A stretch of 64,000 bases of DNA, from contig NZ_LR882967.1 of NCBI RefSeq assembly GCF_904830925.1, forward strand, positions 3,362,106-3,426,105, read 5' to 3'. This stretch comes from Planktothrix pseudagardhii (lineage in GTDB: Bacteria; Cyanobacteriota; Cyanobacteriia; Cyanobacteriales; Microcoleaceae). Position 1 is the stretch's first letter; every line of letters starts with the position of its first letter. A model generated the notes under the pieces. The model saw only the letters and a list, made by a program, of their open reading frames with translations. It did not search any database and was not told the DNA's origin. Of the stretch, positions 53,968 to 60,200 are shown piece after piece. A program made the translations under genes and the position numbers.

Positions 53968-53982
53968 TTTAGGATCATGTTT

Positions 53983-54026
53983 ACTGTAGAGAAAGCTTAG
54001 GTTCTCTACAGTAAGCTTTGGGTTTT
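53983..54026 (+). terminator. Rho-independent terminator after sqdB
   Basis: 12-bp perfect stem TACTGTAGAGAA / TTCTCTACAGTA (53983-53994 / 54002-54013) followed by AGCTTTGGGTTTT. Confidence 0.6.
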
Positions 54027-54064
54027 GTAAAGTGTTATGATAGACTGAATCGGGAGGGTCGTGA

Positions 54065-54493
54065 TTGACGTTTAAGTATCAAGAACATATTAATGAACTT
54101 TCTAATTGTCCACCTACAGATTATCAACCCATAGAAATGACAGCTTATCGGTTTGTATTTGAGGAAAATCAGGAACAGTCAGAAAATAGTTTTTTACCTG
54201 TTTTGATCATAAAACCTCACCGAAAATTTAATACACCTCAACAATGTTGTCAAGGTTATGCTCTGTCATTATTTAATACTCAAAACCATGCAGAACAACG
54301 CTATAATCAGCTAAGAAAAAACCGACCTAATATCAGTCAAACATTAGGAACTCATCTTGCAAAAGGAATCATTGACAAGACAGATGGTATTGCTTCATCA
54401 GTCGATCAAAAAGGACATTTTAGTCTTCATGAATTTCAACATACAGACTTATCGCAAAAATTTGAAATTATTACTCCATTAGAGACAAGTTAA
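54065..54493 (+). CDS. Hypothetical protein (142 aa)
   Basis: Clean ORF. No recognisable motif. Followed 4 bp later by the next ORF. Confidence 0.4.
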   Translation: MTFKYQEHINELSNCPPTDYQPIEMTAYRFVFEENQEQSENSFLPVLIIKPHRKFNTPQQCCQGYALSLFNTQNHAEQRYNQLRKNRPNISQTLGTHLAKGIIDKTDGIASSVDQKGHFSLHEFQHTDLSQKFEIITPLETS

Positions 54494-57061: not shown

Positions 57062-57162
57062 TCAGACCCTATTAACCCTCACAGGGATTCCTTTTTCCGT
57101 TCAGAAAACTTTTTTGTGAGCTTCTATATTTTCATTTTTGAATTTAGGATTATAACCCCATT

Positions 57163-57250
57163 ATTTGTCTGATTCTTTATTAGATTCGCTGTTAAATTTG
57201 TATAAAGAACGGGTTGATCAGATCCAAATTATACCCAAAGTGCTCAGGAA
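57163..57250. repeat. Decayed duplicate of the sqdB 3' end (compare 53862-53955)
   Basis: gattctttattagattcgctgttaaattt---gtataaagaacgggttgatcagatccaaattatacccaaagtg aligns to the sqdB 3' end gattctttgttagattcgctgttgaatttcgctattaagtataaggaacgggttgataatacccaaattatgcctaaagtc. Roughly 85% identity with a 9-bp gap. It encodes [23 protein letters not shown], like the SqdB C-terminus. Confidence 0.75.
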
Positions 57251-60200
57251 TTGGGGAAAGGTTGATAGGCTAATAGCTCTTGGGATATCAATTGTAAAAT
57301 CTGCTCTTGATGACTATCCAAAAACAGATGTTTACCATCAACCTGATGTAGCTTAAATGACTTGTTAGTATGAACGCGCCAAGCGGAAAGATGGTCTTGA
57401 TTCAAAAATTTATCCCCACAACCCACAAAGCTAGTAATAGGACAATCTAGCGGTTTTTCTTCTGTGTAAGAATAGTGATCTTTTTGGAGCACAGATGCTA
57501 CTTTCAAGGAATTTAGCAACACTTGTAAAAATGGATCATCTTCTCCAACTGAATTAGATAGTTCTATATTCGTTAAATCTTTCACGAACTTGAGTAAATC
57601 GGAGTGAGACAGGTTTTCTAAGGAAGGATAGGGATAAAGAAGTTGGGGAGCGTGTTGAGCACCGACAAAGAAATGAATCGGTTGCTTATGATGATGACGA
57701 CGCAAATAACGACACAGTTCAAAATTAATTAATGCTCCTAAACTATGACCATAAAAAGCAAATTCCAGATCAAGATAAGGTAACAAAAATTCTGCCAAAT
57801 CTGCCACTAATGGAGTCAGATACTCAAAAGTCGGTTGACTTCCAGTATATGTTTGAGGAGCAAGTCCGATAGCATAAACTTCAACATCTGGTGGTAAACG
57901 ATTTGACCAATTTTTAAACACAGAAATATCTCCTCCCCCATGAGGAAAACCGAAAAGACGCAACTTAGCATTGGGTTTTCCTTGACGATCAATAATCCAT
58001 TTGGGTGAGGTTTGTGACGGTTCTAAATTAATTAACGGTTTCTCTTTTTCTGTCAGTGATTGATTAAGATGACAATCAGATGATACTCTCATTAACTCAG
58101 ATTTTTCCTTGAGTTTTTTCAGGGAATAGAGAGAAGCCATAATAGAATCTGAATCAATTCCAAAGTCAATTAAACAAGCAATTTCATCAACTCCAATAGC
58201 TTGTAATTGTTGCACCATTAACCCACAACTTTCGGGCGTACCAATTAAAGCGCTAGTTTGAAAATAACGCTCAAAAGCATAAGCCAATAAATGTACTCTT
58301 TCTTTGGACTCCAAACCCTCCAGATTCGTAATTCCATGTCTCCACAGATTCACAGAACTTTCTAAATAAGCAGTAAATGGCTTCCTAACTTTATGGCGCA
58401 CTAAATTCATATCTTCGCCAATGAAAGTATGCAGCATCAAAGTCACTTGTCCCGCCTCTGCATCATAGCCATTTTTTGCCAATGACTCTCGATAACAAGC
58501 AATTTTTTCGGCTAATTCTTCAATGGGTTGGAACAGAAGTGCAGTTAAAACATTAGCCCCCATCGCACCCGCTTCAACAAATCTTTCTTTTCCCCCAGTA
58601 CAAGTAATCCAAATCGCTATTTCCTGTTGTTTAGGTAGGGGATAAATCCGGGTTTCAGTTTCTTTACCTATACCATTTTGTAACAAAATTGATTCACCTT
58701 GCCACAACTTCTGCACAGTTTTAATCCCGGAAAACATCACTTCTGCACTATTAGCAAATTGATTAGGCGCTAAAACAAAATCATTTGGGTTCCAACCCCG
58801 AGCAAAAGCAACATCTACACGCCCTTGGGAAAGGTTATCCACCACCGCCCACTCTTCAGCCACTCGGATAGGGTTATGTAGGGGTAAAACCACGCTACCC
58901 GCACGAATACGAATGCGATCTGTTACCATTGCCAGAGCAGAACCCAAAACCGCAGGATTGGGGTAAAGTCCACCAAAAGCATGAAAATGGCGTTCGGGTA
59001 TCCAAACTGCGCTAAAGCCATGTTTATCAGCGAATTGGCTACTTTCTATTAATAATCTGTACTTGTCATCTTTGAATTCAGCTTCGTTACTGGCAAAATA
59101 TAATAAGCTAAATTGCATCGCTTTTTTGCCAACGGGGAATGGACTGATTAACTTTTTGTGCTCCTCTTCAACCGTTGAAACTGGGTTTTCTGGATCACCA
59201 GCTAAGTGCAGCGCTAAAGATTCAATAGTCGGAAAATTCCAAACAATTGTGGCTTCTAAGGAACGTCCGAGCAATTGTTCTAAATCTTTAGCTAATTTTA
59301 CTGCTCCTATGGATTTGAGTCCATAATCCAGAAAAGATTTTCCTGATTTGCTATTGTCTGTTAATTGAATTTCTCCGGGTAAATTTTGATGCAGCCAATT
59401 GACTATCCAATTTTGAATTGATTCGGCTGTAGGAGTCAAAACCAATGAAGCTAAATCGTCAGTAGAATCAGAATTTAGAGTTGTTTTTAAATCGGGGTTT
59501 GATGGGGTTTTCAGACTATTTTGACAAGCTATTTCTGGGTTTGATACTGGGTTTGATAATGGGGTAGTTTGGTAAAAACTATTGGCATCTTGATCAAACC
59601 AGTATCGTTGTTTTTGGAAGGGATAAGTTGGTAGTAATTGCCAATTTCGAGGATAATCCCGATCAAAACCCTGCCAATCTACAGGAACTCCTTGTAAATA
59701 TAAAGTTGCTAAATTTTGCAGGAGTTGTAGCCAGTCTGACCCATCGGAACTAGCCCCCGTTAACCAAACCCCCACACCCGGATCTAAACACTCTCTACCC
59801 ATTGCTAAAAGTAGAGATTGGGGGCCTACCTCCACAAAGATTTCATAACCTTGATGATCAAGAGTTTTAATGCTATCAGCAAATCGGACTGGCTGCTGAA
59901 TCTGATTGCACCAATATTCAGGAGTTGCGATTTCTGCTTGAATGGGCTGTGCCGTAATGGGAGAAATCATCCTAATTTTTGGGGATGAATAAGTTATGGT
60001 TGAAGCAATGGGTTTAAAGGCGGTGGCAACGGGTTCCATTAAAGGAGAATGGAAAGCTAGATTGTAGTTTAACTTTCGGGTTTTAATATTATCATTTTGC
60101 AAAGTTGCGACGACGGCTTCAACTGCCTCAATTTCACCCGAAATAATGATATTTTTAGGACTGTTGACGGCTGCGATCGCCACCTTATATCGATAAGGTG

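Follow-up and report, generated by a model that had tools for sequence, protein, structure and literature searches.

How does an intact gene come to be followed, about 3.3 kb downstream, by a decayed copy of its own 3' region? The question is raised by sqdB, which encodes UDP-sulfoquinovose synthase, in a 64,000-nucleotide stretch of the Planktothrix pseudagardhii genome (assembly GCF_904830925.1, contig NZ_LR882967.1, positions 3,362,106 to 3,426,105 of the forward strand; hereafter the window). A first-pass annotation read the three genes lying between the two copies as one element that had integrated into the 3' end of sqdB and brought its own copy of that end, as integrative islands do. 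Our comparison with other Planktothrix loci leads to a different picture, which we consider probable though well short of certain: the slot after sqdB is an integrase-free hot spot for variable cassettes, and the decayed copy, here called the relic, is an old recombination scar truncated at the junction with an acquired gene cluster. The earlier interpretation is partly supported, being borne out in geometry only. The features on which the argument turns are the following.

52810-53967, plus strand: sqdB (UDP-sulfoquinovose synthase), intact and full length (Pfam Epimerase / GDP_Man_Dehyd).
53833-53945, plus strand: proximal, functional copy of the repeat, sqdB codons -45 to -8 (repeat search, MAFFT, shuffles).
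53979-54026, plus strand: sqdB intrinsic terminator, a 15-bp stem (stem region 53979-54016) and T tract, kept in all Planktothrix loci.
57138-57241, plus strand: relic, a decayed internal sqdB 3' fragment with a 9-bp deletion and an in-frame TAA, 103/104 identical in strain FACHB-1365.

The duplicate is real. Positions 53833-53945 of sqdB match 57138-57241 in direct orientation, with 89 of 104 aligned bases identical and one 9-bp gap. A repeat search of the window returned two blocks, 53833-53894 against 57138-57199 (62 nt, 85%) and 53904-53945 against 57200-57241 (42 nt, 86%); the 9 bp between them are deleted in the distal copy and MAFFT gives the same alignment, confirming the single deletion reported earlier. 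The local alignment of the two copies scored 112, a value that none of 2000 shuffles reached (mean 16.1, standard deviation 2.3), and BLAST against all loci collected gave an E value of 2e-22. A direct repeat of an sqdB 3' segment, far beyond chance, is therefore confirmed by formal alignment. The sqdB terminator described in the first-pass annotation is also present, at 53979-54016 plus the T tract.

The limits and content of the distal copy differ from those first described. It had been placed at 57163-57250 and said to end at the stop codon of the convergent polyketide synthase (PKS) gene; it begins 25 bp further left and ends at 57241, two bases short of that stop codon (57244-57246). It covers only the stretch of sqdB from -135 to -22 (codons -45 to -8) and lacks the last 22 bp of the gene (7 codons), the stop codon and the terminator. 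Outside these limits similarity drops to chance, the rightward collinear extension (57242-57285 against 53946-54030) scoring 13 against 12.4 in shuffles and the leftward extension (57062-57137 against 53700-53832) also lying at chance level, and the relic is therefore an internal sqdB fragment. A by-eye idea that GGTTGA..TAGG prolongs it into the sqdB stop region was dropped, as this extension scores at shuffle level. The reading frame is kept, as had been claimed, yet it is interrupted by an in-frame TAA at 57153-57155. Ten changes in the relic are absent from every Planktothrix sqdB and eight of these are GC-to-AT transitions; together, the substitutions and the stop codon appear as expected of neutral decay. 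Both junctions, 57137/57138 and 57241/57242, are abrupt, and their old, decayed ends no longer allow junction microhomology or the donor to be read. A search of metagenomes with the left breakpoint of the relic returned a single match (L103), which is unrelated.

Between the two copies lie two units and a short spacer.

54043-55072, plus strand: PD-T4-10-like cassette, an indel unit, missing as an exact 1030-bp block from FACHB-1365.
54065-54493, plus strand: ORF1 (open reading frame 1), PD-T4-10_A-like, putative antitoxin (PADLOC PDLC04023).
54498-54974, plus strand: ORF2, a short PD-T4-10_B-like protein of 158 aa (PADLOC PDLC04024; Pfam DUF6575).
55032-57084, plus strand: ORF3 unit, homologous to units in L003 (88-92%), L009 (79%) and FACHB-1365.
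55091-57061, plus strand: ORF3 coding sequence, 656 aa, with an N-terminal domain, ELELQRQQ repeats, a transmembrane helix and a C-terminal domain.
57085-57137, no strand: 53-bp spacer between ORF3-unit homology and the relic, seen only in the clade of the window and FACHB-1365.

This insert is AT-rich, as first noted (GC 0.29-0.38, against 0.39-0.43 in sqdB), and the reported absence of an integrase holds: none of the three ORFs contains a recombinase domain by Pfam, NCBIfam or PADLOC, and no ORF between 53968 and 57243 is a recombinase. A hairpin at 57067-57086 overlaps the start of the spacer and is a candidate terminator in both directions.

The history of the insert is best read from related genomes. 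A genome scan with sqdB gave 80 loci, 8 of them from Planktothrix, and more loci were added through homologue look-ups. One record, the chromosome LR882970.1 (GCA_904830955.1, P. tepida), encodes sqdB and ORF1 proteins exactly matching those of the window and shows 99.4% identity to window positions 48000-63967. The sqdB protein is 96-98% identical to those of other Planktothrix, and the Planktothrix loci all regain homology to the window at about 52119-52161, in the cpeT-sqdB segment, and lose it just past the sqdB terminator. In most loci the terminator is followed by an extended -10-like motif, TGTTATAAT, a candidate promoter. Beyond it we found ten distinct configurations:

L002 (PCC 11201): empty slot, then the KGK-ccsA backbone.
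L083-L092: PD-T4-10 pair on the KGK-ccsA backbone.
L009: ORF3, then the KGK-ccsA backbone.
L005 (PCC 9631): empty slot, with a DUF3370 gene next in line.
L007: a phycobilisome-like gene and a 162-aa gene (cassette X), then DUF3370.
L008: an AAA_21 ATPase gene and an AriB-like gene, then DUF3370.
L003: cassette X and ORF3, with a convergent HEC-01 pair beyond them.
L004: PD-T4-10 pair, with other genes after it.
Window: PD-T4-10 pair, ORF3, relic, PKS.
FACHB-1365 (L093): ORF3, relic, PKS.

These arrangements do not fit a three-gene island. The pair occurs without ORF3 (L004, L083-L092) and ORF3 without the pair (L009, L003), and the three genes are therefore separate units; in relatives the cargo is not present or absent as one block, and the pair, ORF3, and ORF3 with the relic each occur apart. 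Nor does the combination recur at other sites: a search beside PD-T4-10 pairs elsewhere found no ORF3, and the neighbours of 558-608 aa in L097 and L100 are non-homologous to it. BLAST of the collected loci found no second sqdB copy in those carrying the pair or ORF3 singly, so the comparison that the first-pass annotation proposed as a means of refuting its model goes partly against it, the same genes being found at this locus elsewhere without the duplication. The closest comparison is FACHB-1365, whose alignment to the window breaks off after 54042 and picks up again at 55073, so that exactly the 1030-bp PD-T4-10 block is absent. This strain retains AAAGTGTTATGATA, elsewhere seen only at the left end of the PD-T4-10 cassette, and the pair was therefore lost there by deletion. 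Its relic is 103/104 identical to that of the window and its PKS 97% identical; the relic thus predates the split of the two strains and is not the boundary of a PD-T4-10 insertion.

A second duplication of the sqdB end has arisen independently in L008. There, a 125-bp repeat (11112-11236 and 13413-13532, 86%) flanks the 2.2-kb ATPase pair and takes in the final 44 bp of sqdB, its terminator and some of the promoter-like sequence after it; the distal copy carries two changes that disrupt the terminator stem. Between this copy and DUF3370 lie 84 bp (13534-13617) from inside the second cassette X gene, 92% identical to it, which, judged by their sequence, are a scar left by an earlier cargo. The distal copy runs straight on into the original downstream DNA, first the remains of the old cargo and then DUF3370, and it is therefore the old resident end, the new cargo having come with a fresh sqdB end. 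The L008 duplication has the geometry of the model in the first-pass annotation, and it arose without an integrase. Gene-fragment scars are typical of the slot after sqdB.

Known integrative islands insert at the 3' end of a tRNA or protein gene, for which they supply a substitute end; among cyanobacteria, the tycheposons of Prochlorococcus belong here. The window resembles them in having an intact target gene and cargo set between direct repeats of the target 3' end. If a site-specific recombinase had inserted an element into the sqdB 3' end, the present end of sqdB would be the substitute brought by the element (attL), the relic would be the displaced original end (attR), and the integrase would have been lost later. 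Direct repeats of a target end bracketing foreign, AT-rich cargo agree with this history, as does the fresher repeat of the same geometry in L008, and the 25 bp in which the window and L008 repeats overlap (53921-53945) could be a core site. We nevertheless judge such an origin improbable. We found no recombinase between the two copies in the window, nor in the 2.2-kb insert of L008 or the other cargos of this slot. The cargo is not coherent, its three genes behaving as separate indel units, and a second sqdB copy is missing from loci with these cargos. Missing from the distal repeat is the actual end of the gene (the last 22 bp, stop codon and terminator), which attR would keep, and the cargo ends have no common core. 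The cargos have no common end sequences: BLAST of all junction pieces gave self matches only and thus no att-like motif at the cassette edges, and a motif noted by eye in L008 and L003, AAAGTATTCCCC..., was not repeated on search. Of the proposed footprint of an element in a gene 3' end, the geometry and its parallel in L008 stand, and the integrase, the att-like edges and the gene end are missing. No tRNA genes were found near the insert; an Rfam search of the region was uninformative.

We favor instead a recombination scar at a variable slot. In the common ancestor of the window strain and FACHB-1365, an illegitimate (non-homologous) crossover would have taken place at position -135 of the resident sqdB, joining to it an sqdB 3' end with the cargo that followed it (ORF3, and probably the PD-T4-10 pair as well). 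The joined DNA could have come from outside, with homology on the sqdB side as its anchor, or from a local tandem duplication. Such a crossover would double the sqdB 3' end, and the distal copy, freed from selection, would then have decayed through the stop codon, the 9-bp deletion and AT-biased substitutions. Its last 22 bp, stop and terminator would have been lost when the horizontally acquired PKS/desaturase cluster, or a rearrangement bringing the cluster, joined at this point.

The left flank is a plausible anchor for such exchange. Nucleotide identity across cpeT-sqdB is mosaic between lineages, the window being 98-99% identical to FACHB-1365 in 52715-53164 and 90-92% elsewhere, with values of 87-94% in cpeT and the last two-thirds of sqdB, and homologous exchange therefore occurs in the flank. 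The high-identity tract itself (52715-53164, the 5' third of sqdB) appears as a recent recombination tract that ends inside sqdB. In homology-facilitated illegitimate recombination, as described in PMC3240628, incoming DNA joins at one end by homology and at the other illegitimately, and PMC3784515 describes partial duplications, or merodiploids, generated by transformation. The locus shares with the former process a conserved, mosaic anchor (sqdB), a non-homologous distal junction and an insertion in which a short piece of the anchor is doubled; it differs in that only old, decayed end products are left from which to reconstruct the process, including the order of events and the source.

Several observations weigh against this reconstruction. 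We found no genome with an intact distal sqdB copy as an intermediate. The far end of the cluster (L096) carries no sqdB tail or terminator, and the truncation at -22 would need a separate deletion or rearrangement. Short direct repeats around some cargos, described below, could suggest a mechanism more specific than plain illegitimate recombination. Finally, the diagnostic sites conflict: the relic has a Tyr codon found in 43/49 outgroup sqdB and 0/11 Planktothrix sqdB, and it has a GAA (Glu) codon in common only with sqdB of the window and FACHB-1365 clade. Overall similarity does not settle the matter, the relic matching Planktothrix sqdB at 84-89/104 positions and Lyngbya/Limnoraphis sqdB at 84-85/104, which is roughly equidistant. 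Relic and resident sqdB differ at third codon positions in 10/16 cases, and the changes unique to the relic are spread 3:2:5 over the codon positions. These data are equivocal; an imported allele, an old resident allele and a local copy would fit them alike.

The clade-specific GAA codon is one of the points that favor a purely local event without incoming DNA, either a tandem duplication (from sqdB -135 to just past ORF3) after which most of the second copy was deleted, or a replication template switch that put in 113 bp of nearby sqdB as filler when the PKS cluster was joined. The relic is an internal fragment cut off on both sides and has the same orientation as its source, which is only 3.3 kb away. 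It lies exactly at the junction of ORF3 and the acquired cluster, between stretches of 53 bp and 36 bp that could not be assigned, much as such an event would leave it. In L008, on the other hand, the duplication bounds foreign cargo, which suggests a process tied to cargo acquisition and not random filler, and the relic has outgroup-type states (the Tyr codon and the third base of an ATA codon) absent from every Planktothrix sqdB sampled. We regard a local origin as unlikely on the whole, yet as the most serious competitor to the scar left by cassette exchange.

The DNA on the right of the relic bears on its truncation.

57242-57277, minus strand: 36 bp between the relic and PKS homology, encoding the last 10 residues of the PKS (LAYQPFPNS) and its stop.
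57244-62235, minus strand: type I PKS with KS-AT-ACP-luciferase-like monooxygenase-TE domains (Pfam), the edge gene of the cluster.

The cluster covers 57244-64000, runs on past the right end of the window, takes in L096 1-13100 and is also seen in L093, L094 and L095. It contains the PKS, an EamA protein, a fatty-acid hydroxylase, GCS2, a glutaredoxin, an FAD oxidase, FAAL, four desaturases, an acyl carrier protein and DUF302, and is a predicted fatty-acid-derived biosynthetic cluster. Its proteins are 75-90% identical across Dolichospermum, Aphanizomenon, P. mougeotii and metagenome contigs, with varying gene order, and one desaturase is at least 90% identical in the three named taxa; such identity across these lineages means that the cluster is horizontally shared. 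Apart from FACHB-1365, no other Planktothrix locus has the PKS after sqdB. Together with the horizontal sharing, this leaves the suggested ancestral arrangement, in which sqdB converged directly on the PKS gene, unsupported.

The relic might also have travelled with the cluster from a previous host whose sqdB end adjoined it. It adjoins the outermost gene of a cluster that is shared horizontally, shows much the same distance to Planktothrix as to Lyngbya/Limnoraphis sqdB, and has the outgroup Tyr codon. In Dolichospermum LEGE 00240, however, where the PKS is 80% identical and likewise at the cluster edge, no sqdB-like sequence lies beside the PKS; homology to the Dolichospermum PKS DNA stops at about 57278, and PKS homologues diverge past ISQ[ED]L. 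L095, a JGI (Joint Genome Institute) contig, carries the cluster with a different gene order and no relic, and the GAA codon is common only to the resident clade. An origin in another host is thus very improbable. A simple insertion of the cluster into sqdB is unsupported as well, since, besides the missing sqdB tail, the far flank of the cluster (CitMHS, a nucleoside transporter and a P-type ATPase) matches no other backbone downstream of sqdB.

A last explanation takes its cue from the edges of other cargos. Those of L083, L009 and L007 are bracketed at both ends by the short direct repeat ATTTTGTA(GT), and the empty site of L002 reads TTATTTGTA followed directly by GTGAGG. Because of these brackets, the conserved promoter-like entry TGTTATAAT and the two duplications of the sqdB end, the point after sqdB could be a dedicated cassette-capture site and not a passive hot spot, integron-like but without a linked integrase. 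Promoter-less or self-promoted cassettes would move as circles with a tail of sqdB end and terminator, to be inserted by a host recombinase or by one encoded elsewhere and acting in trans. We consider this improbable. In the KGK-ccsA backbone, two conserved GC-rich hairpins with the look of repetitive extragenic palindromic sequences, GAGGCGTTCACGCCTC and AAGCCCTGAAGGGCTT, lie directly past the insertion point (L002 11205-11260, L009 13232-13290, L083 10545-10595).

Defence hot spots between core genes, without dedicated mobility genes, are known from the pangenomes of E. coli and Pseudomonas aeruginosa. The slot after sqdB is a further example of this known kind of locus: the cpeT-sqdB flank is conserved, small AT-rich and mostly defence cargos alternate, and no integrase or transposase lies in the cargo. 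It departs from these hot spots in its right flank, which is not conserved and comprises at least three backbones (KGK-ccsA, DUF3370, HEC-01/chlD or the PKS cluster), in the partial duplications of the flanking gene 3' end in two lineages, and in holding some cargos that are not recognisably defence. Defence-type cargos are PD-T4-10 A/B in the window, the AAA_21 / PtuA-AriA-like ATPase with its AriB-like partner in L008, and HEC-01 beside ORF3 in L003. ORF3 and the phycobilisome-like cassette are not recognisable as defence genes. The latter (L003 11279-12507, L007 3304-4636) encodes a 243-aa protein with Pfam Phycobilisome (3e-22) and the 162-aa partner without a family match, and is an odd cargo for a slot otherwise holding defence genes.

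A three-gene island with its own att copy thus gives way to a better supported picture, in which cassettes come and go and leave gene-fragment scars, and in which the neighboring PKS/desaturase cluster was acquired horizontally, with its edge inside the scar region. The locus, with empty and filled sites across a bloom-forming genus, is a concrete place in which to study the exchange of anti-phage systems in cyanobacteria. It is not mentioned in the Planktothrix genome paper (PMC5259702).

Contrary to the first description, not all three genes of the window insert are of unknown function. ORF1 matches PDLC04023 end to end (E 1.3e-35, residues 2-138 on profile positions 11-146 of 148), and ORF2 matches PDLC04024 (E 1.5e-34) over profile positions 2-128 of 353 only; these are components A and B of PD-T4-10. 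The E. coli PD-T4-10 system consists of two genes, for a toxin (B) and an antitoxin (A), and acts as an abortive-infection defence (Vassallo et al. 2022, PMC9519451). The window pair resembles it in being a two-gene operon in the order A then B, on the same strand with a 4-nt gap, an order also seen in L004, L083-L092 and L097-L102. It differs in that ORF2, at 158 aa, corresponds to the N-terminal 128 positions of a 353-position profile, so that the C-terminal part of the toxin is absent. Judged by homology, the two proteins most likely work as the E. coli pair does, A neutralising a toxic B that would be released on phage infection. We rejected the idea that ORF2 is a truncated pseudogene, as DUF6575 proteins of 150-170 aa are the common form; its homologues fall into 60-odd clusters, mostly cyanobacterial, of 150-230 aa. 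A PD-T4-10-like pair with a short B component is thus recorded as common in cyanobacteria, where such pairs sit in defence islands with AAA_15/DUF4276 pairs, Cas6-RT, PIN toxins and RAMPs nearby.

ORF3 gave no family or structure match in Pfam, NCBIfam or PDB sequence searches. It contains, within 55577-56548 and roughly at 55700-56450, about 30 copies of the 8-residue ELELQRQQ, with a tandem period of 24 nt, and its length varies with lineage (656 aa in the window, 616 in L003 and 592 in FACHB-1365; the repeat unit of L009 is 48 nt). From its sequence, it looks like a membrane protein with a coiled-coil stalk of variable length.

Two further features of the region complete the description.

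52161-52751, plus strand: cpcT/cpeT-family bilin lyase gene, the conserved left flank of the variable site (Pfam CpeT 1e-70).
62357-63777, minus strand: TnpB-only IS200/605-type element (coding sequence 62367-63614), between the PKS and EamA genes and precisely absent from FACHB-1365.

The TnpB element has a palindromic repeat pair (62373-62405 / 62796-62828), and L004 begins with a related copy. A second variable island of 9.7 kb (42433-52119) lies left of cpeT; in L003, L005, L008 and L009 the counterpart of window positions of about 39100-42430 directly precedes cpeT. This island contains STAND/NB-ARC NTPases, a kinase-TPR protein, a CHAP / hemolysin-type Ca-binding protein and DUF218, and part of it is common to PCC 11201 and FACHB-1365. 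The heptamer CTGATAA / CTGACAA, a cyanobacterial type of short tandem repeat, forms runs between genes at 21801-21879, 24061-24153, 33771-33849 and 39744-39836.

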